Below are positions 24,703 through 40,729 of a stretch of DNA of 42,750 bases, in pieces. A program made the position numbers and the translations under genes. The first letter of the stretch is position 1. Every line of letters begins with the position of its first letter. This stretch comes from a virus (lineage: Duplodnaviria > Heunggongvirae > Uroviricota > Caudoviricetes): positions 1 to 42,750 of the IMG/VR virus record IMGVR_UViG_2703718822_000008, one strand, 5' to 3'. The notes beneath the pieces were generated by a model that was not told the DNA's origin, did not search any database, and saw only the letters and a list, made by a program, of their open reading frames with translations.

Positions 24703-24989
24703 GACTTAATCTTCCCCTCCTTCAGTAGTATCGCCTGCGTCCTGATCACGCCTTCGAGGTGGTAAAGTCTGGCGTCTTTGTTGTCGAGATTATGGGTGCG
24801 TCGGTCGATTTCATCGTGACACGCGCTACAAGCCCATGCGCCGATTAGGTCGTCAGGCTTCATTCCCGTTCCGCAAATTCCAGCCATCCGATAATGTGCC
24901 AGAACTGTAGTTTCAGGATTGCCATTGCATACGCCGTAAATACGTACCTGGCATTCTCTGCCGCGTGCTTCTTTGCGTAGGTTAGCCAT
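24699..24989 (-). CDS. YbcO-like (DUF1364) Cys-rich putative nuclease
   Basis: 96 aa MANLRKEARGRECQVRIYGVCNGNPETTVLAH...CSACHDEIDRRTH... resembles DLP12 YbcO, which also sits next to rusA. Confidence 0.7.
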   Translation of the reverse strand: MANLRKEARGRECQVRIYGVCNGNPETTVLAHYRMAGICGTGMKPDDLIGAWACSACHDEIDRRTHNLDNKDARLYHLEGVIRTQAILLKEGKIKS

Positions 24990-25714
24990 TAAGCAGCCTC
25001 CCCTGTTACTTTCAGCATTCCGTTATCGAGCAGCTTTCTGGTCAGCCACTGTTGACCACGCCCGGTGATTTTTGTGGTGAACGATATCTGTATTCCGTGA
25101 TTTGTGTTGACCGCTGTTTCTTTCACTGTGAAATAGCCGCGATCCATATATTCCTGCATTGGTACATTGCGCCGGGAACCTGAAGCAATAAGGATTTTGT
25201 GATCGCGCATCCACGCAAACAGTTTGTTTGGACCAATACCAACAACCTTTGCAAAGTTTCCAATCAAAATTCCGCTGGCCTCGCCAACGCGATCGGCAAA
25301 CTCAACTTTAGGTGCGGCAATTGCGAGCTGGTTTTCCAGTTGCATTTTCTGCTCAGCAAGATCAGCAGCAAGGCGCAACGCTTCTGGTAGCGTTTTGGGG
25401 ATATTAACCGCAGTTTCTTCAAGCTCTCGCCAACGGTCAACAAGACGAGCGGTGAATTCCGGCGACAATTGGGCGACGACAATAATGCTGTCTCGCTTTC
25501 CTTGTTCGCCCTCGAAGACGTAGAAATCACGCTTCCCGGTAATAACACCTAAATCATTGATTATGTTAGTGTGCTGCAATGCAGGAGGCTTGATAACGCC
25601 ACGTTTCACCAATCTATCTATGGATACTTTTACATTGCTATGGCGGCTTTCTACCAACTCAGCGATTTCAATGCTTGTCATTTTGATGGCATTGCCATTT
25701 ATTAACTCATTCAT
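24989..25714 (-). CDS. Roi/antirepressor-like DNA-binding protein (Rha-type N-terminus plus KilA-C/Ant-type C-terminus)
   Basis: 241-aa ORF in the nin region; domain assignment from sequence resemblance only. Confidence 0.5.
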   Translation of the reverse strand: MNELINGNAIKMTSIEIAELVESRHSNVKVSIDRLVKRGVIKPPALQHTNIINDLGVITGKRDFYVFEGEQGKRDSIIVVAQLSPEFTARLVDRWRELEETAVNIPKTLPEALRLAADLAEQKMQLENQLAIAAPKVEFADRVGEASGILIGNFAKVVGIGPNKLFAWMRDHKILIASGSRRNVPMQEYMDRGYFTVKETAVNTNHGIQISFTTKITGRGQQWLTRKLLDNGMLKVTGEAA

Positions 25715-25883
25715 CGTCTTCTTCCTCGTACATTGAGCTATTCGGATCGCTCATCAGTTCTGCGCAGCAATCGGAGCACACGTGAACTTCCAGCACATGC
25801 AGCTTCTGACCGCAGTTAGCGCACGTTAAAGCTCGCTCGACGCTTTCTTTCTGGTATTGAAGAGATTGGGATGGACTAAGCAT
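25707..25883 (-). CDS. ninF: NinF-like protein
   Basis: From the internal ATG: MLSPSQSLQYQKESVERALTCANCGQKLHVLEVHVCSDCCAELMSDPNSSMYEEEDDE matches recalled lambda NinF (58 aa). Confidence 0.75.
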   Translation of the reverse strand: MLSPSQSLQYQKESVERALTCANCGQKLHVLEVHVCSDCCAELMSDPNSSMYEEEDDE

Positions 25884-26274
25884 GGCTTTCACCATTAAAA
25901 AGTCGCTTGTAAGCATCAATGTCTCGTTTTGCTTCACCGAGCTTTCGTCTTAATTCCATGTTTTCTGATTCAAGCTTTTCCATGTCTTGTTGGTATCGAT
26001 CGCGGTGTTCTTTCCATGCTTTTTGATACGCCTTCATGTATGTCATGTTGGCCTTTCTCTTTGCCTGACGAACTGCGTGGTGGTTTTTCACAAACCAGTC
26101 AGGGTCGTTAAATGCTGCTCTGGCGCATGTATACCAATAATTTGTTGCCTCCCTGTTTAGCCAATAAATACTGATAAATGGCAACCGGATAGACACCATT
26201 TTTCGTTGTGACTCTTTCTCGCCAAACATGTGCCCTTTTTTGATGCTAAGGCCAAATCCAGGTTGAATTAAAAG
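25876..26274 (-). CDS. Hypothetical protein between ninE and ninF
   Basis: ATG at 26274 with GAGGA about 9 nt upstream, directly after the ninE stop; 132 aa; no recognised family. Confidence 0.5.
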   Translation of the reverse strand, partial: LLIQPGFGLSIKKGHMFGEKESQRKMVSIRLPFISIYWLNREATNYWYTCARAAFNDPDWFVKNHHAVRQAKRKANMTYMKAYQKAWKEHRDRYQQDMEKLESENMELRRKLGEAKRDIDAYKRLFNGESHA

Positions 26275-26279
26275 CATTG

Positions 26280-26456
26280 TCATTTCCTCGCGCGATGTCT
26301 TAGCCACCGGATATCCCACAGGTGAGCCGTGTAGTTGAAGGTTTTTACGTCAGATTCTTTTGGGATTGGCTTGGGTTTATTTCTGGAGCGTTTCGTTGGA
26401 AGGTATTTGCAGTTTTCGCAGATGATGTCGGTGATACTTCGTCGCTGTCGTCTCAT
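26280..26456 (-). CDS. ninE: NinE-like protein (58 aa), below the ORF-track threshold
   Basis: Translated by hand: [58 protein letters not shown]; resembles lambda/DLP12 NinE. Confidence 0.7.
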
Positions 26457-27298
26457 GCCGCATCCTCAAAATTAAATCCAAGCTGACATGAAAATGCTTC
26501 ACATGATTCAGAACACGAACCTGAATCATACTGTCGCATTGATGTCATTCTTGAGGCTAACTCATCTCTTGATATATCACTAAACAAGGCAATCAGTGAT
26601 TTAAGTGTATTATTCCCTCGATACATAACCGGTTCCTTTCCTGTTTTTATTTCTGTATCAAGGATGTTGATAAATGCATCTGCAAGTTCTGGCTCATCCA
26701 TGGCTGCCAGCGCAACCTTTTGCATACTTTTTTTTATACAGAAAACACAATTACCAAGATGCTCCTGTATGCCAAGATCAAACTTCTGCCCACTCCACCA
26801 ATCAAGCACATCCTGTTTTTCAAAATCGCTTATATCAGCCAGGTACCGAAAACCATTAGCCCTTTTAAGCCTGTTTGGTTCATCTGTGCGAATGCCAAGC
26901 CATGTGATGTAATTTCCTTTCCCAAACTTTTCCTGACAATATTTGGTGAATGGAACAGACTTCATTCTGTCGGTACAGAACGCACCGCCGATATATGGAT
27001 GTCCGTATTTATTTAACATCCTTTTCCACGGTATAAGATCTGGACCAATATCATTGACACCTATCTCTTCATAACTACTGGCCTTCCCCATTTCTGGATT
27101 AGGTATTACACGAAGGCAATGTAAGTCTATTTTCCAGTTACTGACGATATTTCGGATGAACTCATATGTTTTAGGGTGCTCTGCCCCTGTATCCATGAAA
27201 ACGTAATGCACGTCTTCACCTGCCTGTCGCTTTTGCTCCATTAGCCAGAGCAAATATGCTGACGTCCTGCCACCTGAGAAACTAACGACATTTATCAT
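26453..27298 (-). CDS. PAPS reductase-family (PP-loop ATP pyrophosphatase fold) protein in the NinC position
   Basis: From the ATG at 27298: [17 protein letters not shown]... (SGGxxS PP-loop); ATGA overlap with the upstream Dam gene and with the ninE start. Confidence 0.65.
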
Positions 27299-27822
27299 GC
27301 AGCCCTCCTGACACCCTGCCCGATCGCCATCAATGCCGCTTTGGATACGGTGGTAAACATCCGTCGAGGACTGATGAACGGTCGCCAAATCAGCAGCATG
27401 GAGCCTTTGCTGTTTCCCTTCTTCTCCAGCCCTGTCGATGGTTCGATAAAATTAATCCGTCCATCAGTGATAATGCGAACTTCGTCGACACTCTCCAGAG
27501 CCTTGCTGAACCATCCGACTGACATATCCTCTGGCACAAGCATCACTACCGTCTGTCGCTGTTGTATGCACTGCTCAGCGGCTTTTTCCACCCACGGCCT
27601 GATATTGCTGTACGGTGGGTTATTCCAGATTGCACCGTGGCTTATCCACTCAGAATTGAGCGCGTCGTCGGCCTCAGTTAGCCAGTGAGCACACAGAGCA
27701 TTTTTGTCGCTCGCTGCCGAATCCAGCCAGAATCCAAACTCAATATCCAGTGCATCAAAAAGCCAAAGCGGCGTTTGCCAGCAGTCCTTGTCGTGTGCTG
27801 GCGTATTTGATTTGATAGTCAT
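27295..27822 (-). CDS. Phage-type DNA N6-adenine methyltransferase (Dam family)
   Basis: From the ATG at 27822: MTIKSNTPAHDKDCWQTPLWLFDALDIEFGFWLDSAASDKNA...WNNPPYSN... (NPPY motif IV); 175 aa; ATGA overlap with the ninB stop. Confidence 0.7.
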   Translation of the reverse strand: MTIKSNTPAHDKDCWQTPLWLFDALDIEFGFWLDSAASDKNALCAHWLTEADDALNSEWISHGAIWNNPPYSNIRPWVEKAAEQCIQQRQTVVMLVPEDMSVGWFSKALESVDEVRIITDGRINFIEPSTGLEKKGNSKGSMLLIWRPFISPRRMFTTVSKAALMAIGQGVRRAA

Positions 27823-28259
27823 GCAGCCCGATCTCCCCATCTCGCTTTCCACTCCAGAGCCAGTCTCGCTTCGTCTGACCACTTAACGCCACGCTCTGTA
27901 CCGAATGCCTGTATAAGCTCTAATAGCTCCGCAAATTCGCCTACACGCATCCTGCTGGTTGACTGGCCTATTACCACAAAGCCATTCCCGGAAAGGTTAG
28001 GAACAACATCCTGCTGCTTTAATGCTGCTGTAAAAACGCACTTCCAGCTTTCTGCATCCAGCCAGCGACCATGCCATTCAACCTGACGAGAGACGTCACC
28101 AAGGCAAGCCCAAAGCTTTCGATTCTGGTCTAAGCTGCGGTTGCGTTCCTGAATGGTTACTACGATTGGTTTGGTTGGGTCTGGAAGAATTTGCTGTACC
28201 GCGTGAATAGCGTTTTGCTGATGTGCTGGGGATCGAATTTCAAAGGTTAGTTTTTTCAT
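27819..28259 (-). CDS. ninB: Recombination protein NinB (Orf family)
   Basis: 146 aa MKKLTFEIRSPAHQQNAIHAVQQILPDPTKPIVVTIQERNRSLDQNRKLWACLGDVSRQVEW... essentially identical to recalled lambda NinB. Confidence 0.9.
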   Translation of the reverse strand: MKKLTFEIRSPAHQQNAIHAVQQILPDPTKPIVVTIQERNRSLDQNRKLWACLGDVSRQVEWHGRWLDAESWKCVFTAALKQQDVVPNLSGNGFVVIGQSTSRMRVGEFAELLELIQAFGTERGVKWSDEARLALEWKARWGDRAA

Positions 28260-28452
28260 GACTTCCCTCTCTAACAGATTTCAGGTTATTCCACTCCGTT
28301 ACCGCACTGCGATAATTCGCGGCCGCCACAGCGGCGTGGTTAGCGCAGTAGATTTGGCACCCGTTCTCCATGTCGAATATTGTCGGTGATTTTCCGCATT
28401 TACATTTTTTGGCACGCGGTGCGTCTGAACACATTCCGTTAACGGTGTCCAT
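28240..28452 (-). CDS. Small Cys-rich hypothetical protein
   Basis: 70-aa ORF with six Cys (C..C.C....C....C..YC); SD-like gaggggga upstream; between helicase and ninB. Confidence 0.4.
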   Translation of the reverse strand: MDTVNGMCSDAPRAKKCKCGKSPTIFDMENGCQIYCANHAAVAAANYRSAVTEWNNLKSVREGSHEKTNL

Positions 28453-28536
28453 CAGGATCCCCCTCGTTCTTAATCCAATAAAAAAGGGCTACTGTGTAAA
28501 TAGCCCCTGTTATTAGCTCAGTGATGTAGATGGTCA

Positions 28537-29973
28537 TCAGAATCCTCCTTTCTTCTTGGACTGCGGCTCCTCGCGTTCACGGCGGCGCATTTCAGCAGAC
28601 TGTTGGTCTGTGTCATAAATAGCGCCATTTGCCTGAATGCAATACACCGTGCCGGTATTGCCATGACGATTGAGACGAAGGATTAGTTCGGTTTCACCAG
28701 GTGGAACACTGTCATCAAAAGCACCTTCACGATGGATCCCCACCCAATAATCGCAATCCTGTTCAATCTGCCCTGTATCTCGTGAGTCACTTGGTAATGG
28801 GCGTTTATTGGTTCTGCTTTCCAGTGCGCGGTTAAGCTGCGTCAGAAGCACAACAACGCAATCAAGCTCTTTGGCAAGGTTCTTCAGTCCTTTGGTGATC
28901 ATGCCGTAAGCAAGGTCGTTGCGATCGGCCTTCTCAGCGGTCATTAGTGTCAGGTAATCGACCAGAATCATGCCAACACATCCCTTTTCTCGCTTGATTC
29001 GACGGCTTTCGCTAACGATTTGAGCCAGAGATAATCCCGGCGTGTCGTCGATGTAAAGCAGGTCGATTTCACTCAAACGATTAGCTGTTTCGATCGCCCT
29101 GTTGAAGTCACCATCGTAATCACCCTGATAGCCGTCATCAGCGTCATTTGTCGCCGGAAGGTAAAAAATATTCGGGTTAACACCAGACTTCTGCCCTACC
29201 AGTTTTTCCAGTATCTGATCACCTGGCATTTCAAGGCTGAACATCAGAGCGGGCTTTTTCTCATGCACTGCGCAGTTGATTGCCATCTGGCTGTATAGCG
29301 TCGTTTTCCCCATCTTAGGGCGAGCGCCAATGACAAACAGAGAGCCTTTCACCAGACCTTTCGGTGACAGCATCCTGTCCAGCGATGGGATCCCTGTGCT
29401 CATTCCTCGTTGTTCTCCTGATGGGTCAAATCTCTTCTCAAGGTCGCTAACCCAGTCTTCCATGACCTCACCAAATGAACGAAGGCCGCGACGCGATCCG
29501 GTTTTTGCATGGTCTGTCAGTTGCGTGAAAATCGACTGAATAGCTTCGTACTTCTGCGTCGCAGTCATTCCGTTGCGGGAATAGAGCAATTCCGTCGCTT
29601 CAGTCATGCGGTTGATGGCGTAGCGTTCCATTGCGGTTTCACGAACCTGCATTGCATAGGCAACGATGTTTGCTGCGCTTGGCGTGTTCTTTGCGATCTC
29701 AGCGATATAAGCAAAACCGCCAACAGACGCCGTTAACGATTTACGCTCCAGTTCATCGAAAAGCGTCAGGCCATCTACTGGCTTTTGCTCCCGGTGCATT
29801 CTGGTTATTTCTTCGAAAAGGATTTTGTGTGGTCGGCTGTAAAATGAGTCAGGCTTCAGCATCGCCAGAACCTTCTGGACGCGCTCACTGCTGTCATCAT
29901 CCAGAAGCAATCCACCAATCACCGCCTGCTCTGCCTCGATGCTATGGGGCGGCGCATAAAAATTATCGGTCAT
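28537..29973 (-). CDS. Replicative DNA helicase, DnaB family (P22 gene 12-like)
   Basis: Walker A GARPKMGKTT; DnaB-like N-terminus ...PHSIEAEQAVIGGLLLD; ATG at 29973 with GAGGGTG upstream (the track start at 29988 is a GTG). Confidence 0.85.
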   Translation of the reverse strand: MTDNFYAPPHSIEAEQAVIGGLLLDDDSSERVQKVLAMLKPDSFYSRPHKILFEEITRMHREQKPVDGLTLFDELERKSLTASVGGFAYIAEIAKNTPSAANIVAYAMQVRETAMERYAINRMTEATELLYSRNGMTATQKYEAIQSIFTQLTDHAKTGSRRGLRSFGEVMEDWVSDLEKRFDPSGEQRGMSTGIPSLDRMLSPKGLVKGSLFVIGARPKMGKTTLYSQMAINCAVHEKKPALMFSLEMPGDQILEKLVGQKSGVNPNIFYLPATNDADDGYQGDYDGDFNRAIETANRLSEIDLLYIDDTPGLSLAQIVSESRRIKREKGCVGMILVDYLTLMTAEKADRNDLAYGMITKGLKNLAKELDCVVVLLTQLNRALESRTNKRPLPSDSRDTGQIEQDCDYWVGIHREGAFDDSVPPGETELILRLNRHGNTGTVYCIQANGAIYDTDQQSAEMRRREREEPQSKKKGGF

Positions 29974-30853
29974 CGTGTTCACCCTCACGAACTTTCAGGT
30001 AGGTATTATCGTTAAGCAGGAAATCAAATCCCTTTTTGTGCCAGACGGTTCCGCGCTGATGGTTTGGGCGCTCTTCGAACATCCATCGGCAATTTTCGCC
30101 TACGTAGCTCAAATAATTTCTCCAGTCCTGCATCGTGAAACCATGCCCGTCAAGCTGTCTGGTTATCACTCCGGCTTTGCGCCAGAACGTTCGGATCTGG
30201 TTTTTACGCTTGTCATTCAGTGCGCGGATTCTTGGCGCTTCAGGAAGGATTTCGTGGTAAGCATCGACAACATCCTGACAGCTAACGGAAGGTTTTTTCT
30301 TGTCAGACTTTTTGTCTGCTGTGGCACTCTCTAATACGTCAGTATTAGAGATATTATTTATATTATTGTTTATGGACAACCGTTGGACAACCGTTGGACA
30401 ATCTCCGCTGAGAGCCGCGCCATTACTGGTGTTTGCGTTGGACAACCGTTGGACAACCGTTGGACAATTTTTTGACTGAAAATCGTCATATTTAACGATT
30501 GTAAACAGGCTAAATTTCTTCCCCATCGAGCAAATATTAAGCATACCTTTCGACTCAAAAGTCCGTAATAAGCTCCGAACTTTGTTGTCGGGGATGAATG
30601 TTTCTCTGACCAGCGACGGGCGTCCAGTTATCATCTGACCGCGATCAACAGTTATCGGACCGATATCCGTATTGACGACAGTAGATTCGTGATTAGCCTT
30701 GAGGATTAAGTGAAGCCAAAGATGTACTGCCTGAGAGTCCTTATAGAGCCTGCTGTCCATAAACTGGCGGTGTATAGAGACATACCCCATACTGGATGCC
30801 TCCTGATGTTGTACAGGGTTATGCCTGTAATCAGCTAACTTAACGACGCCCAT
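29963..30853 (-). CDS. Replication initiation protein (lambda O / P22 gene 18-like) containing the origin iterons
   Basis: 296-aa ORF upstream of the helicase; internal iterons encode the repeated peptide PTVVQRLS; exact start uncertain. Confidence 0.7.
   Translation of the reverse strand: MGVVKLADYRHNPVQHQEASSMGYVSIHRQFMDSRLYKDSQAVHLWLHLILKANHESTVVNTDIGPITVDRGQMITGRPSLVRETFIPDNKVRSLLRTFESKGMLNICSMGKKFSLFTIVKYDDFQSKNCPTVVQRLSNANTSNGAALSGDCPTVVQRLSINNNINNISNTDVLESATADKKSDKKKPSVSCQDVVDAYHEILPEAPRIRALNDKRKNQIRTFWRKAGVITRQLDGHGFTMQDWRNYLSYVGENCRWMFEERPNHQRGTVWHKKGFDFLLNDNTYLKVREGEHDDR
30340..30520. other. Putative origin of replication: two clusters of three 11-bp iterons (TTGGACAACCG) flanked by AT-rich DNA, inside the replication gene
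   Basis: tggacaaccgttggacaaccgttggacaat at 30373-30402 and 30437-30468; AT-rich stretches at 30340-30372 and 30468-30520. Confidence 0.65.
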
Positions 30854-31001
30854 GCTTCACTCCTGCTTTGGCTAGTCTGTAAACACCAACAAGGCGCTCT
30901 GCGAACGCCCTGTTATTTGCTGCGGCTACCACTAATCCCTCAGGTGAATCAGGGTGTCGAATCTCTTCTTTTTCCTGGTATTTCTTACGACGTTTTGTCA
31001 T
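30840..31001 (-). CDS. Small basic hypothetical protein (53 aa) between cII and the replication gene
   Basis: ATG at 31001 with GGAG 6 nt upstream; MTKRRKKYQEKEEIRHPDSPEGLVVAAANNRAFAERLVGVYRLAKAGVKHGRR; below the track threshold. Confidence 0.45.
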   Translation of the reverse strand: MTKRRKKYQEKEEIRHPDSPEGLVVAAANNRAFAERLVGVYRLAKAGVKHGRR

Positions 31002-31035
31002 AATGACTCCTGTGGATTGATCCAGTCTTTCTACA

Positions 31036-31314
31036 TCAGGCCTCGAAGAATTCGCCGTTCTTCGGGGCTTTTTCTTTTGTCAGCATTCTGGCTACTTTCT
31101 TAGCCAGTTCCGCCAACTCCTCGTCTTCAACACCCCATTCAAGAACAGCCAGAAGCATTCCCATTTTTGGGATGAAGCTGTCTTTCCATCTCGAAATTTG
31201 CGATTCATTAATCCCTAACGCGTCGGCAACCTTTCGCTGACCACGTACAGCAATTCGATTCAGGATGTTGCTTGTAATTGCATTCGCTTTCTTGCGAGTA
31301 CTTGTAAGTTGCAT
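31036..31314 (-). CDS. cII: Lysogeny establishment regulator CII
   Basis: 92 aa; ...LNRIAVRGQRKVADALGINESQISRWKDSFIPKMGMLLAVLEWGV... resembles recalled lambda CII. Confidence 0.85.
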   Translation of the reverse strand: MQLTSTRKKANAITSNILNRIAVRGQRKVADALGINESQISRWKDSFIPKMGMLLAVLEWGVEDEELAELAKKVARMLTKEKAPKNGEFFEA

Positions 31315-31372
31315 ATGTAAGTATTTCCTTAACTAATAAGAAGTTATGCGCATCAACTTATGCGCGTTGTAT

Positions 31373-31416
31373 TCCCGCATTTCGGCGGGAATGAGGACCA
31401 TGACTGTTAAAGAGCG
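31373..31416 (-). promoter_or_regulatory. nutR: boxA (cgctctttaa) plus boxB hairpin (tcccgccgaaatgcggga) immediately downstream of cro
   Basis: Minus-strand reading; the boxB hairpin is identical to the one at the putative nutL (33069-33086). Confidence 0.65.
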
Positions 31417-31422
31417 GTGTTA

Positions 31423-31617
31423 CTATTTGTTTTTCTTGTTGCTTGGGAAAGGACGAACTTCCTCTCCAATCACACTGCCATCAGGCTTTACCGTAACCAT
31501 AATGTTACGGCCTGCCAGAATGGCCTTGCTGATAGCGCACTGGATTACACCAAAGTCACTGGCTGCTTTAGCCTGTCCATGGATTTTGGCGTAATCGGCA
31601 AGTGTCATTCGAATCAT
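31423..31617 (-). CDS. cro: Cro repressor
   Basis: [62 protein letters not shown] resembles recalled lambda Cro; GGAGAG SD 5 nt upstream of the ATG at 31617. Confidence 0.85.
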
Positions 31618-31648
31618 ATGCACTCTCCGTTATTAACCATGAACAAAG

Positions 31649-31712
31649 AATACTACAGGTATTCAAAGCAATCAATACTCAGGGTATTTTTAGTTTAAGT
31701 ACCTTAGCTATT
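31649..31712. promoter_or_regulatory. OR operator cluster: three AATAC-N5-GTATT-type sites (31649-31663, 31674-31688, weaker 31698-31712) overlapping pR and pRM
   Basis: aatactacaggtatt, aatactcagggtatt, agtaccttagctatt; centre-to-centre spacing 25 and 24 bp; located between divergent cro and cI. Confidence 0.65.
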
Positions 31713-31723
31713 AGAATTAAGCT
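31689..31723 (+). promoter_or_regulatory. pRM-like promoter for cI (-10 tagaat at 31712-31717); the cI mRNA is probably leaderless
   Basis: The -10 hexamer ends 6 nt before the cI ATG at 31724; no SD; operator centred about 43 bp upstream of the start, as for lambda OR2/pRM. Confidence 0.45.
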
Positions 31724-32440
31724 ATGGAAAATAAAAAATCACTGACGACAGAACAGCTCGAAGACGCTAAGCGGCTTAAGGCTTTGTATGAGTCAAAAAA
31801 GAAAGAATTGGGAATAACCCAATACTCAATCGCTGATGAACTGGGTATCACCCAAGGAGCGGTAGGGCATTATCTTAATGGCAGAAACGCGCTAAACGTT
31901 GAGGTCGCATCTGGTTTTGCACGTTTGTTGCAAGTCTCAATTGCTGATTTTAGCCAGTCAATTGCTGCCAAGGTTGCAGAACAGGCAGAAAGCCTTAAGA
32001 GCGATGCCAACGTAAGGTATGCAGGGGAATACAGAGCAGGAAAGAGGTATCCGGTGTTAAGCAGTATCCAGGCTGGCTCGTGGTGTGAAGCATGCGAACC
32101 ATACACCATTAAAGACATAGATGTTTGGCTTGAGTCTGACGCGCATATTCAAGGTAATGCGTTCTGGCTTAAAGTGGAAGGTGATTCAATGACGGCACCG
32201 GTTGGGTTAAGCATTCCAGAGGGAACATTCGTTCTTTTCGATACCGGAAGGGAGGCGATCAACGGCAGCTTGGTCATAGCAAAACTTTCTGACTCTAACG
32301 AAGCAACATTCAAGAAGCTGATAATCGACGGCGGAAATAAATACCTCAAGGGACTTAATCCTGCATGGCCTCTCGTGCCAATCAATGGAAACTGCAAGAT
32401 TATAGGCGTTGCAATTGAGACAAAACTAAGGCTGGTTTGA
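31724..32440 (+). CDS. cI: CI prophage repressor (HTH plus S24 LexA-like peptidase domain)
   Basis: 238 aa; N-terminus LTTEQLEDAKRLKALYESKKKELGITQYSIADELGIT resembles lambda CI; C-terminal domain with AFWLKVEGDSMTAP...FKKLI... (Ser/Lys dyad region). Confidence 0.85.
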   Translation: MENKKSLTTEQLEDAKRLKALYESKKKELGITQYSIADELGITQGAVGHYLNGRNALNVEVASGFARLLQVSIADFSQSIAAKVAEQAESLKSDANVRYAGEYRAGKRYPVLSSIQAGSWCEACEPYTIKDIDVWLESDAHIQGNAFWLKVEGDSMTAPVGLSIPEGTFVLFDTGREAINGSLVIAKLSDSNEATFKKLIIDGGNKYLKGLNPAWPLVPINGNCKIIGVAIETKLRLV

Positions 32441-32457
32441 TCACGCAAGGGGCGATT

Positions 32458-32826
32458 ATGGTTGGAACCGCTATAGCAAGCTTTTTTGGGATGTTGGCAA
32501 TCTCGACAATTTACGGCTTAGCGCATGCTTTTATTGCGAAATCTCTATCAGAAAAAATAAGCCAGGCTTGGGCGCATAGATCAGCTCGTTTCATGATTCT
32601 GGTGATCATAGCAATACAAGGGATATCTGCATTTATCCTCTATGGATCAAGCTTATACCTATTGTATCAAGGCGCGACATTTACGCCTTACACCAGTGAT
32701 TACGGAACTCTATACGATGGTAGTGAAGACATCACTGTGGCTTGGATCGTCTTTGGTTTATCTATGGCCGTGTCTGTTGTAGCAGACATCATTAAGGTAA
32801 TTCTCGTCTTAACCTTCGCTGACTAA
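32458..32826 (+). CDS. Small 3-TM membrane protein co-transcribed with cI (rex/sieB slot); candidate superinfection-exclusion or abortive-infection protein
   Basis: ATG at 32458 with aagggg SD, 17 nt after the cI stop; three hydrophobic segments; no recognised family. Confidence 0.55.
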   Translation: MVGTAIASFFGMLAISTIYGLAHAFIAKSLSEKISQAWAHRSARFMILVIIAIQGISAFILYGSSLYLLYQGATFTPYTSDYGTLYDGSEDITVAWIVFGLSMAVSVVADIIKVILVLTFAD

Positions 32827-32957
32827 CCTATAATCCCGGCAGCAATAGCTATCGGGATCCACTTCACATATCCCGCATAAAAAGCACTGAACAAGCAGAC
32901 ACCGAAAAAATAAATATCCTTTGTATTCATTTGCTTATCATTATTTCATCAAAAATA

Positions 32958-32999
32958 AATACCTTGGGTATTTACACAATAAAATACCTACAGTATTCT
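32958..32999 (+). promoter_or_regulatory. OL operators (aataccttgggtatt 32958-32972; aatacctacagtatt 32983-32997) overlapping the pL promoter (-35 tttaca 32971-32976, -10 tattct 32994-32999)
   Basis: Same AATAC-N5-GTATT motif and 25-bp spacing as OR; the hexamers have 17-bp spacing and face the N operon. Confidence 0.6.
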
Positions 33000-33044
33000 T
33001 TAGCCATCAGCAGGACGCTGGTAGCCAAACGGAACAGATTGGCA

Positions 33045-33086
33045 GGCTCTTTAACATTGATGGGATTGTCCCGCCGAAATGCGGGA
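33045..33086 (+). promoter_or_regulatory. nutL: boxA-like (ggctctttaa) plus boxB hairpin (tcccgccgaaatgcggga)
   Basis: About 45 nt downstream of pL; boxB is identical to the nutR copy. Confidence 0.6.
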
Positions 33087-33397
33087 ACCAAAGAGTAGTT
33101 GGCTTTGGGGTGACGTGAAGTGCAGCTGCACGACGGCAACCGGAAGATAAGCACCCGGCGCGTCACCGCCAAAGTCAATTCCATAGGCGAAATGCAGCCG
33201 CCAAACACAGCCAATGCTGCACATGCAACAGGAGGATTTATGTGAATGCATAACTTCAAAACCGAGGTTAATTAAATCTCTCGATCCGAGCATTGACCTA
33301 TTAGGTGGCGAGATGCTCTTTCTGCCCCTCAGTTCGAGGGGCCAGAAACCACTTTGCAATCACTATCAATTCCAAAGTTGTTTCATCGGAGGTCAAC

Positions 33398-33670
33398 ATG
33401 ACAGTAGTCATTACATATCTGGCTGACGATAACGCCAGAAATCGCCGCAGAGCACGCAGACAGGCTCAACGTGAACAGGCAATGCAAGAGCAGCGACTGA
33501 CGCGAAAAATTGCGCTAAAGCTCTCTGGTTGCGTCAGAGCAGATAAAGCAGCATCACTCGGAAGCCTTCGCTGTAAGGAAGAAGATGAACGCAGTGGAAG
33601 TATTTGCCTGCCAAACGTAGCTCTTTACGCGGCAGGATACCGGAAATCAAAACAACTGACAGCGAGGTAA
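33398..33670 (+). CDS. N: Antitermination protein N (P22 gene 24-like)
   Basis: From the ATG at 33398 (GGAGG SD): MTVVITYLADDNARNRRRARRQAQ... (arginine-rich motif) and C-terminus LPNVALYAAGYRKSKQLTAR resembling recalled P22 gp24. Confidence 0.8.
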   Translation: MTVVITYLADDNARNRRRARRQAQREQAMQEQRLTRKIALKLSGCVRADKAASLGSLRCKEEDERSGSICLPNVALYAAGYRKSKQLTAR

Positions 33671-33673
33671 GTG

Positions 33674-33898
33674 ATGAATCAGACATACATTCCATCATGC
33701 TTGAGAAATCTGCCAAAGCAGAAAGCAAAGCCCCGCAAGCAAGCCATAAAGGACGCTAAGTCAGAGGTTATTGATAAAGCAATACAATTGCTCAGGGAGG
33801 AGTTAAGAAGTGGCAAGCTCGAAGGAATGATGATGCCCTATCAGCGCGGATATCTATCGGCGATTAGTAAGTTGGAAGTATTGAAGAGTGAATTATGA
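33674..33898 (+). CDS. Hypothetical early-left protein
   Basis: 74-aa ORF, SD gagg 8 nt upstream, immediately after the N stop. Confidence 0.45.
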   Translation: MNQTYIPSCLRNLPKQKAKPRKQAIKDAKSEVIDKAIQLLREELRSGKLEGMMMPYQRGYLSAISKLEVLKSEL

Positions 33899-34025
33899 AC
33901 TATCTGGAATTTCCGGATGGTTCATTGTTTTGGCAGCAAGCCACAGAGGTGATATATGGAAGAAGAATTTGAAGAGTTCGAAGAGCATCCGCAGGATGTG
34001 ATGGAACAATACCAGGACTATCCTT

Positions 34026-34226
34026 ATGACTACGACTATTGATAAAAATCAATGGTGTGGACAATTCAAGCGATGCAATGGATGCAAGCTGCAATCGGAA
34101 TGCATGGTTAAGCCTGAAGAAATGTTTCCTGTAATGGAGGATGGGAAATATGTCGATAAATGGGCAATACGAACTACGGCAATGATTGCCAGAGAACTTG
34201 GTAAACAGAATAACAAGGCTGCCTGA
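34026..34226 (+). CDS. Small Cys-containing hypothetical early-left protein
   Basis: 66-aa ORF (C..C..C....C cluster); overlapped at its 5' end by a 28-aa acidic mini-ORF (33956-34042). Confidence 0.4.
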   Translation: MTTTIDKNQWCGQFKRCNGCKLQSECMVKPEEMFPVMEDGKYVDKWAIRTTAMIARELGKQNNKAA

Positions 34227-34265
34227 TGGTGGCCTTTATTTTTGGCATAAACAACAGAGGCGAAG

Positions 34266-34601
34266 ATGAAAGAGTTTAATGGCACTCCTGGTAAATGGAG
34301 TTTTTCTCACAGCAGCGCAAGTGACGCAAGCGTAGCTTGCATAGAAATTAATTCATCTGAGTCACTGCATGAAATTGCATATCTCCAGAGCACTCCTTCA
34401 AAAATTGGAGGATACAATCAGACTTCTTTCGATAAAACAATCGCTAATGCCCATCTAATAGCGGCAGCACCAGACCTTCTCGAAGCACTTCAGTTATTAC
34501 TTAAGCAAACCAAAAATAGAGCAACGACAACATATCCAGAATGGTATGGAGCTGTTAATAAAGGTCTCGCAGCAATCAGCAAGGCTCTGGGAGGTGAATG
34601 A
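34266..34601 (+). CDS. Hypothetical early-left protein
   Basis: 111-aa ORF; ATGA overlap with the next ORF. Confidence 0.45.
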   Translation: MKEFNGTPGKWSFSHSSASDASVACIEINSSESLHEIAYLQSTPSKIGGYNQTSFDKTIANAHLIAAAPDLLEALQLLLKQTKNRATTTYPEWYGAVNKGLAAISKALGGE

Positions 34602-34810
34602 TGTGCGAGTTTTATGAAGCAGATATCAAACGCCCAGAAATGGCAAGTGATGCGACATTACGTGATTACTTCGCTGCTAAGGCTATGGCAGCAATAGTGC
34701 GCAGATGGGACGGACATTCCTTTGGCGGTGGACAGAATTCACCACAGTACAAAGAATTAGCAGATGATGCCTACTTTATTGCTGATGCCATGCTCAAAGC
34801 TCGCGAATAA
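34598..34810 (+). CDS. Hypothetical early-left protein
   Basis: 70-aa ORF, translationally coupled to the previous ORF. Confidence 0.45.
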   Translation: MMCEFYEADIKRPEMASDATLRDYFAAKAMAAIVRRWDGHSFGGGQNSPQYKELADDAYFIADAMLKARE

Positions 34811-34903
34811 GCACTGTGTATTCATTCCAACGAGTGAATACACGGAGCAATGTCGCTCGTAACTAAACAGGAGCCGACTTGTTCTGATTATTGGAAATCT
34901 TCT

Positions 34904-34934
34904 TTGCCCTCCAGTGTGAGGGCAATTTTTTTTT
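34904..34934 (+). terminator. Rho-independent terminator within the early-left operon (tL1-like, N-antiterminated)
   Basis: ttgccctc-cagtgt-gagggcaa hairpin followed by T9. Confidence 0.7.
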
Positions 34935-34946
34935 GATGGAGGATAT

Positions 34947-35915
34947 ATGAGTGAAGTAACAGATTTAGTTGTTATTGAAAAAGCAAATGCAATGACTGTA
35001 TTTCAGTCTGCCGACCAGATTGAAGAAATCCTTCAAAAGGTTGAACGTGAAGTTATGTCCTTTGTGCCTGATATCACAACGGCAAAGGGCAGAAAGGAGA
35101 TCGCTTCTCTGGCGTATAAAGTTGCGCAGACGAAAACATATCTCGATGGTCTTGGCAAAGACCTTGTTGCTGAACTGAAGGAAATTCCAAAGCTAATTGA
35201 TGCCAACCGCAAGACAGTGCGTGATCGACTTGATGAGCTGAAAGCCAAGGCGCGCCAGCCTCTTACTGATTATGAGGAAGAACAGGCGCGGATTAAAGCC
35301 GAAGAAGAAGCTAAGGCAGCAGCTGAAGCTCTCGCAAAGCAAATTGAGTCTGACCATGAAATAGCGATTTTGATGGATCGCGAATTTGACCGCCAAAGAG
35401 AAGAGGAAAGACTCAAAGCGGAGCGGGAAAAGCGAGAGCATGAAGAACGCTTAAAAAGAGAAGCTGAAGAGAAAGCCAGAGCAGAAGCCGAAGCAAAGGC
35501 AAAAGCCGAAATTGAAGCAGCAGCAAGGCGAGAAGCAGAAGCTAAGGCCGCAGCGGAACGTGCAGAGCGTGAACGCATTGAAGCCGAGCAACGAGCACAG
35601 CGCGAAGCAAAAGAGGCAGCAGAACGAGCTGAAAGAGAAAAGCATGCGGCAATTGAAGCAGAACGCCGTAAAGCACAGGAGGAGGCAGAACGAATCCGGC
35701 GCGAGGCTGAAGCAAAAGAGCAAGCCAGAATAGCAGAAGAAAAAAGAATCAAGGACGAAGAAGAGCGTAGAGCAAAGGATAAAGCTCACCGGAAAGAAGT
35801 AAATAACAAAATACTTGCTGACCTTATCAAGGTTGGCGCATCAGAAGATGTTGCTAAAAATATCATAACAGCCATCGTAAAAGGCGAGGTATTCGCAACA
35901 AAAATAACCTACTAA
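34947..35915 (+). CDS. Hypothetical protein with a long E/A/K/R-rich charged coiled-coil repeat region
   Basis: 322-aa ORF, GGAGG SD; residues about 110-285 are low-complexity KAEAEAKA/ERAERE repeats. Confidence 0.55.
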   Translation: MSEVTDLVVIEKANAMTVFQSADQIEEILQKVEREVMSFVPDITTAKGRKEIASLAYKVAQTKTYLDGLGKDLVAELKEIPKLIDANRKTVRDRLDELKAKARQPLTDYEEEQARIKAEEEAKAAAEALAKQIESDHEIAILMDREFDRQREEERLKAEREKREHEERLKREAEEKARAEAEAKAKAEIEAAARREAEAKAAAERAERERIEAEQRAQREAKEAAERAEREKHAAIEAERRKAQEEAERIRREAEAKEQARIAEEKRIKDEEERRAKDKAHRKEVNNKILADLIKVGASEDVAKNIITAIVKGEVFATKITY

Positions 35916-36464
35916 TAAAACCAACATAAGGAACCACCCATGATTTACGCAATCGCGGGAGGCGCTCGCATGGGTGCCTTCCAATTAAATGAATCTTTAC
36001 TTGAACGAATCACCCGTAAATTACGTGACGGATGGAAAAGAGTTGAGGTCTTATTATGCGCAATGAAATAGCCATTAATCACCAGATGCTTCGTGCGGCA
36101 CAAAACAAAGCAGTAATAGCCCGATTTATTGGTGATTCAAAAATGTGGCTTGAAGCAAATAAAGCGATGAAATCAGCTATCAACCTTCCGTGGTATCGCA
36201 GGAAATGAGTTTTACAGATAACTGGTCAGACGAAGAATTCATTCGTCAGATGAAAGATTTAATCGGTAACGAAGGAGATATTCATGTCACTTGCAACCAC
36301 AGTGAAGGAGAGCAAGTTACAGAGACGCATGTACACGCAGAAAGCTCTCTGGTATCGCCATAATGGTGACCGCGAAGGAATGCGGGTATGCCTTAATTTG
36401 TCCCGAGTCGAAGTATTAAATCAGCGTTATTTCCTTGGGCCATGTCCATTCTGAGAACAAACAT

Positions 36465-37070
36465 ATGAGCAAAGAATTTTACGCAAGACTGGCAGCTATT
36501 CAGGAGAATCTGAACGCGCCAAAGAATCAATACAACTCATTCGGCAAATATAAATACAGAAGCTGCGAAGACATTCTTGAGGGTGTTAAGCCGCTGCTGA
36601 ATGGCCTGTTTTTATCAATCAGCGATGAAGTTGTGTTGATTGGTGATCGGTATTACGTGAAAGCCACGGCAACTATTACCGATGGCGAAAACAGTCATAC
36701 GGCAACCGCTCTTGCACGAGAGGAAGAAAGCAAGAAAGGAATGGATTCTGCACAAGTTACGGGAGCTACAAGCTCTTATGCACGCAAGTATTGCCTCAAT
36801 GGTTTGTTCGGCATAGATGATGCGAAAGATGCAGATACAGACGAGCATAAACATCAGCAGAACGCAGCAGCAAAGCAATCAAAACCATCACCTACACCTG
36901 AACAGGTTCTAAAAGCATTCACTGACGCAGCATTGCAGAAAAACACCGTAGAAGAGCTTAAACAGGCGTTCGCCAAAGCGTGGAAGATGCTCGAAGGCAC
37001 ACCGGAGCAGCACAAAGCGCAGGACGTTTACAACATCAGACGAGACGAATTAGAAGGAGCGGCTGCTTAA
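36465..37070 (+). CDS. erf: Single-strand annealing recombinase, ERF family (P22 Erf-like)
   Basis: MSKEFYARLAAIQENLNAPKNQYNSFGKYKYRSCEDILEGVKPLLNGLFLSISDEVVLIGDRYYVKATATITDGENSH... matches recalled P22 Erf. Confidence 0.85.
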   Translation: MSKEFYARLAAIQENLNAPKNQYNSFGKYKYRSCEDILEGVKPLLNGLFLSISDEVVLIGDRYYVKATATITDGENSHTATALAREEESKKGMDSAQVTGATSSYARKYCLNGLFGIDDAKDADTDEHKHQQNAAAKQSKPSPTPEQVLKAFTDAALQKNTVEELKQAFAKAWKMLEGTPEQHKAQDVYNIRRDELEGAAA

Positions 37071-37450
37071 TGGCACATTCGATTACTGTAAGACTAAACA
37101 AGCCCGCAAGAGAGTTTCAGGCCGGGGAAAATATCGGATTCAACATCCGTGCTGGAGTTCAGTATTACGATCGCCAGACAAAAAAGAAAGAATGGACAAA
37201 CTACAGCGCCGTTGTATTTGCCAAGCCGGGAGCGCAAGCGGATTACTACCGTAGTGTTCTTGTTGAAGGTGGCATTGTGGAAATTACCGGAGAAAACATC
37301 AGGGTTGATGTTTATCAGGGGCAAAATGGTCAATCAATCACCCTTGAATTACTGAATGCAAAGATTGGATTTGCAGCTTCAGGAAATGGCCAGCAGCAAA
37401 GTAGTAACCAGCAGAACACTCCTGAATACGACGATTCCATCCCCTTCTGA
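37070..37450 (+). CDS. Phage single-stranded DNA-binding protein
   Basis: 126 aa from the ATG at 37070 (TAATG overlap with the erf stop); Gly/Gln-rich linker and C-terminal acidic tip ...DDSIPF like SSB. Confidence 0.7.
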   Translation: MAHSITVRLNKPAREFQAGENIGFNIRAGVQYYDRQTKKKEWTNYSAVVFAKPGAQADYYRSVLVEGGIVEITGENIRVDVYQGQNGQSITLELLNAKIGFAASGNGQQQSSNQQNTPEYDDSIPF

Positions 37451-37473
37451 TTTAGAAAAATAAGGATTTAATT

Positions 37474-37770
37474 ATGCCAGCGCCTCTGTATGGTGCGGAT
37501 GACCCGCGCCGCTGTTCCGGCAAATCCGTATCGGAGGTGCTGGATAAATTCAGAAAAAACTACGACCTGATAATGTCGCTACCGCAGGAAACGAAAGAGG
37601 AAAAGGAATTTCGCCACTGTATATGGCTTGCAGAGAAAGAAGAACGCGAGCGAATTTACCAGACATCAATCCGACCATTCCGCAAAGCCACATATACCCA
37701 CTTACCTGAATATATCGACCCGCGCCTGCGTAATTACCGCTCACGCTATGGCGCTATCAGTAATGACTGA
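37474..37770 (+). CDS. Hypothetical early-left protein
   Basis: 98-aa ORF. Confidence 0.45.
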
Positions 37771-37780
37771 GGAATTTACC

Positions 37781-37948
37781 ATGAGAGGACTTGCATACAA
37801 TCCCGGCATTCTTCCGGCAGAAATGATTATTCGCCAACGCGTAAAGCCAATGCCATCGAGAGAGGAATTGCTTAAGAGAAAGAGTTTCGGTTCTGTTAAC
37901 GACAACAGATATCTGAATGCGATGTGGCGCAAAGGAGGCAAACAGTGA
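37781..37948 (+). CDS. Small hypothetical protein (55 aa)
   Basis: ATG at 37781 with gagg SD; stop overlaps the next gene's GTG start (GTGA). Confidence 0.35.
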
Positions 37949-38487
37949 GCAAAATTAATTACCAGGCACTGCGTGAGGCGGCAGTACGTGCAATTCCGGC
38001 AATGGAACGCCTGTTAATGTTGCCAGTTGATGATGATTTGTTAAGTGAACAGGAACTTAAAGATTACGGTGTGGATATTGATGCGCTCAACGCCTTCAAG
38101 CTTCTGGCAGGGCCAGAAACCGTGCTGGAACTGCTGAATGAAATTAAGCGCCAGGAAGACACAAATATCGATTCTATATGCCGAATTGCAGAGCTGGAGG
38201 CGCGGGAAATAAAACCAGCCAAAGGCGAAGTTCTTGTCGTTGTATCTGGTTTTACTGGTTGCGGAAAAAGCGCCATTGCCGGGGAAATAGAAATCGCGAT
38301 GAAGGCTATTGGTGTACCGGTTAAGTGGACTAATGGCGATGCAGAAAAGCGCATGACTGGCGCTGACTGGCTGACAGCGATTGAGATGTACAAACCAACT
38401 GTGCGCATCGTGGAAGTTAATGTGCCACGCGTCGCTGGCATTTGCATCAAAGGAGACGCAGGAGAGCAAAACGATGAAAAACCGTAA
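37945..38487 (+). CDS. Hypothetical protein with a Walker A-like P-loop (GFTGCGKS)
   Basis: GTG at 37945 with GGAGG SD 6 nt upstream; 180 aa; [17 protein letters not shown]. Confidence 0.45.
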
Positions 38488-38650
38488 AGCAAAACGACTT
38501 TTTTTACAGCGACCTGTGCGTGTGGTGGAGCTGGTTATCAGCAACCATAAGATAGCGGTACTCCATCCATTTGGTCAGGTGGCTTTTGCCGCAAAGCGTA
38601 AGCCTAGCGCGTCACAGAACAGGCGGAAGAAAGGGTACGCAGTAAGATGA
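38474..38650 (+). CDS. Small basic hypothetical protein (58 aa), first of two tandem paralogues
   Basis: ATG at 38474 with ggagag SD; [58 protein letters not shown]. Confidence 0.4.
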   Translation: MKNRKAKRLFLQRPVRVVELVISNHKIAVLHPFGQVAFAAKRKPSASQNRRKKGYAVR

Positions 38651-38838
38651 AAAACCGTAAAGCTAAGATGCTTATCTCCCGTGTATACAGACTTTGCTAT
38701 CCCAGCCAGTGGTTGAGAGTTAGCAATCGTCGTGTGGTGTTGTTTTCATTTTCTGGAATTGCCAGAGAGGGAGTCCGAGATAAGGGCAGCGCGGCGCAAA
38801 ACCGCTGGAAAAACCACCTGCGCACTAAAGGAGACTGA
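38647..38838 (+). CDS. Small basic hypothetical protein (63 aa), second tandem paralogue
   Basis: MKNRKAKMLIS...; same first 16 nt as the preceding ORF; ATGA overlap. Confidence 0.4.
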   Translation: MKNRKAKMLISRVYRLCYPSQWLRVSNRRVVLFSFSGIAREGVRDKGSAAQNRWKNHLRTKGD

Positions 38839-38839
38839 T

Positions 38840-39049
38840 ATGGCTATTGCCGCAAGTTACACCATGCATCTCTACTGTGATTGTCGCCAGTGTACAAATG
38901 GTAAATATCAAACGCCAGACTTCGGTGAGTATATCGGTACGTCATGGGCTGGCTGTGCAAAAGAGGCACGTAAGGATGGCTGGCGAATAAGCAAAGACAA
39001 AACACGTGCTTTTGCGCCAGGGCATAAAGTTTTAAGGATTAACAAATGA
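38840..39049 (+). CDS. Small Cys-rich hypothetical protein
   Basis: ATG at 38840 with aggag SD; MAIAASYTMHLYCDCRQCTNGKYQTPDFGEYIGTSWAGCAKEARKDGW... Confidence 0.4.
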   Translation: MAIAASYTMHLYCDCRQCTNGKYQTPDFGEYIGTSWAGCAKEARKDGWRISKDKTRAFAPGHKVLRINK

Positions 39050-39732
39050 CCACTATTACCAGAGAAAACGCGGAAATTAAATCATTCATCACTGGTTTCC
39101 TGAGCGACCCGGCGCACGATAACCAATCTACAGACAGCCTGCTTGCCAATGTGTTTCGTATCGCACAGGCATCGCTGGAAGCAGAACCAGTTGCTTATAT
39201 TTTCAAACATCCGGCCGGAAAATTATTCTGGGCTTTGACGGATGAAAGCAATAAAGATCAATCGGACGTTATTCCTGTTTATGCTGCCGCGCCTGCGTCG
39301 GTTGTGCCGGATAATGCATCAGAACCTCTTGCTTATGCTTACAAAGAGCTTACGCCTGAGATTATGCGCAACCAGGCTGCCGAATCCAATCGCGGTAATG
39401 AGTGGACCGGCAATCCTGATATTGATAACGCCATCATCATGCTCGACCGCATAGATACGCTGGAAAATTGCGATGATGACCGTATTGAGGCTGTTAAGGC
39501 TGTTTTGCGTAGACTGGCTGGCAACTATCCGGTAACTCCGGATGGTTGGATAAGCTGTAGTGAGCGAATGCCCGCTCAAGATGATTGGATTTTAATTTAT
39601 TCAAAGCACGGCGAGTATATGGCAGGACAGGTACAAGGGGAATACGTGGAGTTGAGCGACGGCACTTTATCGTGGTTAGGGAACGCCTTGTACTGGATGC
39701 CGCTACCAGAACCGCCGCAGGAGATGAAGTAA
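39046..39732 (+). CDS. Hypothetical protein with a C-terminal DUF551-like domain
   Basis: 228 aa; C-terminal ...YWMPLPEPPQE is typical of the DUF551 phage family as I recall it. Confidence 0.5.
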   Translation: MTTITRENAEIKSFITGFLSDPAHDNQSTDSLLANVFRIAQASLEAEPVAYIFKHPAGKLFWALTDESNKDQSDVIPVYAAAPASVVPDNASEPLAYAYKELTPEIMRNQAAESNRGNEWTGNPDIDNAIIMLDRIDTLENCDDDRIEAVKAVLRRLAGNYPVTPDGWISCSERMPAQDDWILIYSKHGEYMAGQVQGEYVELSDGTLSWLGNALYWMPLPEPPQEMK

Positions 39733-40016
39733 TGGACTCCTTCGCGAAATATACGATTATTGACTGGATTGCCTTCCTTCAGGTTTTGCTCATCTGGTTT
39801 TATATGGCTTACAGGAGTGGACAGTGGATTGTCAGTGTAGCCTGTAGCAAGGGATGGCGTTGGTGGAACAGAAAGAATAAAAAAGCACTGGCATTGGATT
39901 CGTTTTACGAAGCATTCAATCTTAACAGCCTTCAGCCTGGTTCTGTCATTGTAGTCACCACTCAAAGCGGCATGACGATACAAATTCACAAGCCAAAGGA
40001 GGAAGGTCGTGGCTAA
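39732..40016 (+). CDS. Hypothetical protein with an N-terminal hydrophobic segment
   Basis: From the ATG at 39732 (TAATG overlap): MDSFAKYTIIDWIAFLQVLLIWFYMAY...; 94 aa. Confidence 0.4.
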   Translation: MDSFAKYTIIDWIAFLQVLLIWFYMAYRSGQWIVSVACSKGWRWWNRKNKKALALDSFYEAFNLNSLQPGSVIVVTTQSGMTIQIHKPKEEGRG

Positions 40017-40293: not shown

Positions 40294-40352
40294 CAATCCT
40301 CGCACTCGCGGGGATTTCTTTTATCTGAACTCGCTACGGCGAGTTTTGTTTT

Positions 40353-40664: not shown

Positions 40665-40705
40665 GACGTAACCAATATTCGAATTGAAGAACTGAAAGAA
40701 CACCA

Positions 40706-40729
40706 ATCCGCCTGATGGCGGTTTTTTAT
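40706..40729 (+). terminator. Rho-independent terminator
   Basis: ccgcc-tgat-ggcgg hairpin followed by ttttttatt. Confidence 0.7.

Follow-up and report, generated by a model that had tools for sequence, protein, structure and literature searches.

The immunity region considered here lies at positions 31300-33100 of a 42,750-base stretch of viral DNA (IMG/VR record IMGVR_UViG_2703718822_000008; the whole stretch is referred to below as the window) and is very probably the HK620-type immunity region of a P22-like prophage at argW, encoding a bistable switch of the lambda type. An earlier sequence-only reading had proposed that palindromes between cro and cI and at pL are the right (OR) and left (OL) operators of a cI/cro switch; this assignment is upheld by the statistics of the sites, by their identity with those of phage HK620 and by their conservation among phages of other genera.

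Operators of the HK620 immunity type

The exact palindrome AATACNNNNNGTATT, or AATAC-N5-GTATT, is found four times in the window, versus 0.01 expected from dinucleotide-preserving shuffles. The copies lie at 31649-31663, 31674-31688, 32958-32972 and 32983-32997, precisely where the sequence-only reading had put its four strong operators, and there are no others. All of them fall in two intergenic control regions -- the one between cro and cI and the one at pL -- and the spacing is indeed identical in both pairs, 25 bp measured start to start between OR1 and OR2 and between OL1 and OL2. The weaker third sites that had been reported are present as well, at 31698-31712 (2 mismatches) and 32913-32927 (1 mismatch). 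Matches with up to two mismatches number 20 across the window versus 16.5 expected, which is not above chance, so that counts lend the third sites no support, and the case for them comes from their position and from comparison with relatives.

The four strong sites are the 15-bp cores of the 17-bp OR1, OR2, OL2 and OL1 of HK620, while the third OR site is HK620 OR3. OR1 (31648-31664, GAATACTACAGGTATTC) overlaps the -10 of pR and OR2 (31673-31689, CAATACTCAGGGTATTT) its -35. The overlap with the pL hexamers that had been described earlier is likewise seen, with OL2 (32957-32973, AAATACCTTGGGTATTT) lying over the -35 (TTTACA) and OL1 (32982-32998, AAATACCTACAGTATTC) over the -10 (TATTCT); these four sites all carry the exact consensus. 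OR3 (31697-31713, AAGTACCTTAGCTATTA) has 8 of the 10 arm bases, it ends on the two bases with which the pRM -10 begins, and its position is kept in the relatives discussed below. As in other lambdoid switches, then, three related operators (31648-31713) lie between the divergent cI (+ strand) and cro (- strand), a second cluster overlaps pL upstream of nutL and N, and a Cro protein is recognized by both Pfam and the PDB; cII, hkaS and N around cI and cro complete the lambda-like layout.

Over the main comparison segment (31300-33100; 1,801 bp), an ungapped comparison with HK620 (AF335538) gives 99.3% identity, with 13 substitutions, no indels and no change in any operator; mEpX2 is 99.8% identical over the same segment, and 16 phage records cover at least 80% of it. 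The HK620 record annotates pRE, tR1, nutR, cro, pR, OR1, OR2, OR3, cI, hkaS, tIMM, OL3, OL2, pL, OL1 and nutL. Its OR1-3, OL1-3, pR, pL, nutL, nutR and pRE are base-identical in the window, tIMM differs at a single base (32934), and cI, cro, cII and hkaS are shared. The DNA-binding domain of CI is 98.9% identical to that of HK620 and 100% identical to those of mEpX2 and HK140. The module is found also in HK630, HF4s, phi296, phi367 and some Stx2c phages, besides mEpX2 and HK140, and in 146 of 5,426 complete E. coli genomes (about 2.7%), always with at least 95% identity. The operator arm bases are invariant in seven E. coli carriers, in which the substitutions fall in the spacers or in the centre of OL2.

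To judge by these sequences, the switch in the window is of the HK620 immunity type, with the same CI, Cro and operators as HK620. The proposal of a distinct immunity specificity therefore stands in part: the operator, and hence the specificity, differs from that of lambda, the half-site being AATAC(Y) where lambda has TATCAC(C), but it is an already known one, the HK620 type annotated in 2001 (AF335538). The feature is, in other words, an ordinary and already known one, an annotated HK620-type immunity region.

Intermediate relatives were sought by tblastn with the DNA-binding domain of CI. The domain is 84% identical in Serratia phage vB_SspS_OS31, 79% in Hafnia phage Pocitis76, 68% in Escherichia phage Fostie and 67% in Erwinia phage vB_EhrS_49, as against 53% in lambda. 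Pocitis76, OS31 and EhrS_49 differ from the window in their CI DNA-binding domains (67-84% identical), in the spacer and central operator bases and in their hosts, which belong to other genera, but they have the same CI recognition sequence, TQGAVGHYLNGRNALN, the same AATAC-N5-GTATT consensus with an O1-O2 spacing of 24-25 bp, and the same geometry of -10 and ATG; some of their half-sites read AATAT or AATAG. The Cro helix of Pocitis76, QCAISKAI, is also the same as that of the window, and its OR1 matches the window's OR1 at 17 of 17 positions despite divergent flanks. An alignment of the cro-cI intergenic regions shows conservation of both operator arms (AATAC and GTATT) as well as of the cro Shine-Dalgarno, the pRM -10 and the cI ATG, with variation in the spacers and central operator bases.

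A weight matrix was built solely from 17 sites in the Hafnia, Serratia and Erwinia relatives and used to rank all 42,734 positions of the window. The top six were OL2 (21.3, the best in the window), OL1 (19.6), OR2 (18.8), OR1 (18.5), OR3 (15.1, rank 5) and 32912-32928 (13.5). A match at 30340-30356, inside gene O, scored 11.2, below the mean top score of the shuffles (12.9), and was put down to chance. Fostie was tried as a source of covariation and set aside; its CI helix reads QSAVGHY, and its half-sites, of the type NNTAC by eye, are too degenerate, though it keeps the -10/ATG geometry. The immunity specificity, as represented by the CI and Cro recognition helices and the operator consensus, appears from these comparisons to be common to phages of Escherichia, Hafnia, Serratia and Erwinia.

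An independent check is given by the evolutionary code for Cro recognition from the Cordes laboratory, in which Gln at H1 goes with A2 of the half-site, Ala at H3 with A5 and Lys at H6 with C6 (PMC6649833). H1-H6 of the window's Cro are Q-C-A-I-S-K, and the half-site, numbered from the edge of the 17-bp site as in lambda, reads N1-A2-A3-T4-A5-C6, so that all three predictions (A2, A5 and C6) agree with the sequence. The lambda half-site, T1-A2-T3-C4-A5-C6, shares A2, A5 and C6 and differs at positions 3 and 4. The recognition helices differ as well, QGAVGHY versus lambda QSGVGAL in CI and QCAISK versus QSAINK in Cro; going from lambda to the window, the changes are Ser to Cys at H2 and Asn to Ser at H5 of Cro, and Ser to Gly at 45, Gly to Ala at 46 and Ala to His at 49 of CI. 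One possibility, suggested by the literature on lambda co-crystals, is that these residue changes are what shifts the specificity at half-site positions 3 and 4.

It is extremely improbable that the palindromes are chance occurrences, sites for some other factor, or RNA hairpins, rather than operators for CI and Cro. Four copies where 0.01 are expected, all of them in two intergenic control regions, argue strongly against that explanation, as do their conservation across four genera along with the CI and Cro recognition helices and their agreement with the Cro code. An Rfam scan of the whole window returned only a tRNA-Arg, so that no known RNA family accounts for the region.

Putative pRM and leaderless cI

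A likely pRM can be drawn at 31689-31723 on the + strand, with a -35-like TTTAGT (31689-31694), a 17-nt spacer, the -10 TAGAAT (31712-31717), the six nucleotides TAAGCT, and then the cI ATG at 31724, the A of which would be +1. The sequence-only reading had remarked on this ATG lying 6 nt after a tagaat -10, and had taken it to imply a leaderless transcript as in lambda; the distance is as it had said, and the geometry of a lambda-like leaderless pRM transcript is borne out by the match in position to lambda, by the lack of a Shine-Dalgarno and by retention in relatives. The -10 spans -12 to -7 from the ATG and is overlapped by two bases by OR3, as in lambda, which also has 6 nt between the -10 and the ATG. 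The centres of OR1, OR2 and OR3 lie at -68, -43 and -19 from the ATG, compared with -66, -42 and -19 in lambda, where the pRM transcript is leaderless (PMC10491246). The -35 is weak, as expected, because pRM would need CI at OR2.

When the upstream anti-Shine-Dalgarno duplexes were computed, no Shine-Dalgarno was found for cI, the pairing amounting to -0.6 kcal/mol where random 20-mers average -2.1. By the same measure cro has -7.0 (its Shine-Dalgarno being GGAG), cII -6.1, hkaS -6.8, O -6.9 and N -10.2 kcal/mol, and a small open reading frame (ORF) at 30840-31001 lies between -6.1 and -10.2 kcal/mol. The window, the Hafnia, Serratia and Erwinia relatives and Fostie all have a -10 hexamer (TAGAAT, TACAAT or TAAAAT) 6-7 nt ahead of the ATG, with different bases between.

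The most likely reading of these sequences is that the cI mRNA is leaderless, like that of lambda, with the A of the start codon as its first base, and we regard this as well supported. pRM is not annotated in the HK620 record, so that the leaderless proposal of the sequence-only reading adds to the database annotation. An unlikely alternative keeps the operators as described but has cI transcribed from farther upstream, for example from TATTTT or TAGTTT in or beside OR2, with a short AU-rich leader that lacks a Shine-Dalgarno. Other TAnnnT hexamers do exist at 31685-31696, and the promoter scan made no call for pRM; against this, TAGAAT is the best -10 (5 of 6 positions) and is placed relative to OR3 and the ATG exactly as in lambda, the hexamer, its 6-7 nt and the ATG recur in four relatives with differing bases between, and cI has no Shine-Dalgarno.

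The annotated cI of Serratia phage OS31 (1953-2711 of the locus) starts 48 nt upstream of the ATG homologous to that of the window. Such a start would run coding sequence through OR3 and part of OR2 and is thus probably mis-called.

The third OL site and tIMM

The HK620 record places OL3 at 32935-32951 (TTATCATTATTTCATCA) and tIMM at 32908-32938. The annotated OL3 scores -18.9 with the weight matrix (rank 12,884 of 42,734), gains nothing from being moved by up to 3 bp in either direction, and carries a substitution and an adjacent 1-nt deletion in HK140; it is not supported as an operator. The best candidate for OL3 is instead 32912-32928 (AAATATCCTTTGTATTC), which lies inside the annotated tIMM, 45 bp centre to centre from OL2, has 9 of the 10 arm bases, comes sixth among all positions of the window and does not vary among the seven E. 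coli carriers. The poor score and the HK140 changes of the one, and the arms and invariance of the other, favour 32912-32928 as OL3. The tIMM palindrome was also considered as an intrinsic terminator and rejected as such, its hairpin having just -0.6 kcal/mol as RNA; when the 46-nt stretch was shuffled, 136 of 200 versions gave a fold as stable or more so. From these sequence comparisons, the OL3 and tIMM annotated in HK620 are probably mis-assigned.

That OL3 is after all where HK620 has it, with the palindrome at 32912-32928 serving as the tIMM terminator hairpin, seems improbable. The annotation itself speaks for it, as does an offset from OL2 of 22 bp, which resembles the OL2-OL3 spacing of lambda, but the score of the annotated site is at random level, shifting it is of no help, HK140 has both a substitution and an indel in it, and the supposed hairpin is equalled or beaten by most of the shuffles. 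In the relatives, moreover, a good third site is found at variable offsets from OL2 -- 21 bp in Erwinia, 29 bp in Hafnia and 45 bp in Serratia OS31, where the site is weak.

A stronger competitor, still the less favoured one, is an OL with only two functional operators, in which neither 32935-32951 nor 32912-32928 is bound. The score of 32912-32928 is not significant window-wide by itself, and an offset of 45 bp is unusual for cooperative binding of the lambda type; on the other side are its 9 of 10 arm bases, its place within 45 bp of OL2, its invariance in the seven carriers, and the presence of a third OL site in all three of the cross-genus relatives. We consider the balance to be about even for the fuller proposal that the HK620-type OL is mis-annotated and unlike that of lambda, with the real OL3 being 32912-32928, the former tIMM, 45 bp from OL2, and with the specificity common to Escherichia, Hafnia, Serratia and Erwinia phages. 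If it is true, looping between OL and OR and autorepression of pRM would have to work differently in this widespread type, with its 146 carriers among the 5,426 E. coli genomes.

A hydrophobic ORF of 35 codons (MNTKDIYFFGVCLFSAFYAGYVKWIPIAIAAGIIG) on the minus strand at 32823-32930, between hkaS and OL, overlaps the OL3 candidate. It was considered as a small peptide gene and rejected. A 1-nt indel would shift its frame in E. coli SCU-109 and Stx2c phage EH1904; by manual reading, two of its three substitutions relative to HK620 are non-synonymous, one of them turning an Ala of the hydrophobic part into Asp; and none of the records examined annotates it. We take the ORF to be probably spurious.

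Proposed working of the switch, its genes and its prophage

Working from the sequence features, the site statistics, the identity with HK620 and the cross-genus conservation, the following mechanism can be suggested. CI and Cro would share their operators, dimers of each binding the same 17-bp sites, N-AATAC(Y)-N3-(R)GTATT-N, with the CI dimer combining a helix-turn-helix (HTH) N-terminal domain and a LexA-like, self-cleaving C-terminal domain. Three such sites, OR1-3, would lie in the cro-cI interval, and pL would have OL1 and OL2 and probably also a third, distal one, OL3. In the lysogen, CI at OR1 and OR2 and at OL1 and OL2, presumably bound cooperatively, would cover the -10 and -35 of pR and pL and so silence the lytic operons. 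With the centre of OR2 about 43 bp upstream of the cI ATG, CI could stimulate the weak pRM, whose transcript would begin with the A of that ATG as a leaderless mRNA, and the overlap of OR3 with the pRM -10 would allow negative autoregulation.

Similarities to lambda include the gene order and orientation, a tripartite OR of 17-bp sites with a central base pair, and the proteins themselves, with CI 43% and Cro about 62% identical and the Ala-Gly site and self-cleavage Ser and Lys kept. The differences from lambda are the O1-O2 spacing, which is 25 bp here versus 24 bp, the presence of hkaS in place of rexA/rexB, the Tyr at the position of CI Glu34, and the likely OL3, which is 45 bp from OL2 here versus 20 bp in lambda.

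Several points weigh against the overall reading. Glu34, part of the positive-control patch of lambda CI, is Tyr here, so that activation of pRM by the lambda mechanism, while plausible, is not assured; Asp38 is kept. A score as high as that of the OL3 candidate turns up at some position in 32% of shuffles of the whole window, which keeps a two-operator OL in contention. Finally, no binding, footprint, transcript-start or cross-immunity experiment for the HK620 immunity type was found in the searchable literature. Literature searches on the operator sequences and on experiments with the HK620 repressor returned nothing relevant, and the titles and abstracts of the mEpX2 papers contain no immunity data. 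The genome of HK620 was reportedly described by Clark, Inwood, Cloutier and Dhillon in 2001 (J Mol Biol 311:657).

The cI gene (31724-32440, +) encodes 238 amino acids (AA), with an HTH N-terminal domain and an S24 autopeptidase C-terminal domain (Pfam HTH_3 and Peptidase_S24); its start is fixed at 31724 by an in-frame TAA two codons upstream. The relationship to lambda CI that had been claimed is clear, with E = 2.9e-52 to the lambda repressor structure PDB 3bdn and 43% identity over 233 residues. The QAG, the serine of GDSM and the lysine of FKK align with lambda A111-G112, S149 and K192, and with this Ala-Gly site and Ser/Lys dyad kept CI is a putative self-cleaving repressor. The cro gene (31423-31617, -) encodes a 64 AA protein of the lambda-Cro family with the recognition helix QCAISK (Pfam Cro, E = 3.6e-26); against lambda Cro in the PDB it gives E = 4.7e-19, with 38 of 61 aligned residues identical. 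The product of cII (31036-31314, -; 92 AA), the activator for establishing lysogeny, matches Pfam Phage_CII with E = 1.8e-42 and is called cII in HK620.

Three of the control elements are taken from HK620 features on identical sequence: pRE (31291-31330, +), with the CII site TTGC-N6-TTGT; nutR (31371-31416, -), with boxA and boxB; and nutL (33045-33086, +), with boxA GGCTCTTTAA and a boxB hairpin. The promoters pR and pL are also annotated in HK620. The former (31640-31675, -) has its -35 TTGATT at 31675-31670, a 17-nt spacer and its -10 TATTCT at 31652-31647, with a start near 31640; at 8 of 12 consensus positions it falls slightly below the promoter-scan threshold used. The latter (32971-33006, +) has its -35 at 32971-32976, a 17-nt spacer and its -10 at 32994-32999, with a start near 33006; it matches at 9 of 12 positions and is the only promoter-like match in the OL area (32971-32999).

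Lying in the same direction as cI, in the slot that rexA/rexB occupy in lambda, is hkaS (32458-32826, +; HK620 annotation), which encodes a hydrophobic, probable membrane protein of 122 AA with three apparent hydrophobic segments. It belongs to PHROG 6534, of unknown function, has no match in PADLOC, NCBIfam or Pfam, and is a candidate for a prophage-expressed exclusion or moron gene. A stable hairpin, AUCCCGG...CCGGGAU, is found at about 32833-32858 (+), directly past the hkaS stop and with no U-run after it; the cI-hkaS transcript may really end there, or the hairpin may be a signal for its processing.

The N antiterminator (33398-33670, +; 90 AA) is the first gene of the pL operon (Pfam N_peptide, E = 5e-16; PHROG 271). 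The similarity to HK620 stops near 33100, and the N gene and the approximately 200 bp after nutL follow HK140 and CUS-3. The latter stretch, between nutL and N (about 33100-33400 in the window), is common to HK140 (97%) and CUS-3 (87%) and is missing in phi296, ECP1 and mEp213, whose matches are split in two; nothing was found in it by Rfam. Hafnia phage Pocitis76 has an annotated tRNA-Gly (3423-3502 of the extracted locus) in the same slot, which seems to be a hotspot for insertion. On the other side of the immunity region, gene P (DnaB-like; 28537-29988, -) has a listed GTG start at 29988 which lacks a Shine-Dalgarno (-0.4 kcal/mol) and overlaps the end of O; either the gene is translationally coupled or its true start is elsewhere.

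Taken whole, the window is a P22-like prophage, with virion genes most like those of IME10 (96.6%), in which it differs from HK620, and early and immunity genes most like those of mEpX2 and HK620 (96-97%). The prophage (1069-20334 and 21565-41061) is mosaic, and neither half of the window is covered to 80% by any single phage record. A tRNA-Arg(CCT) gene at 1009-1083 (+) is argW, and phage homology starts at about 1069, within the 3' end of the tRNA, which identifies the window as a prophage integrated at argW. The argW site is also used by KplE1. It is likewise the integration site of HK620, Sf6 and Kapi1 (PMC8787464).

As a discovery the region carries little weight, since predictions of its operators, promoters and genes have been on deposit with the HK620 genome since 2001 and the module is common. 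What is new is limited to the confirmation by comparison with relatives, the finding that the leaderless geometry is conserved, and the evidence that OL3 and tIMM are probably mis-annotated. The cross-genus conservation, together with the independent check by the recognition code, nonetheless makes the operator assignment solid on comparative grounds. The HK620 type may offer a natural variant for studying how the specificity of CI and Cro changes at half-site positions 3 and 4 while positions 2, 5 and 6 are kept, and it could also supply an orthogonal repressor/operator pair.

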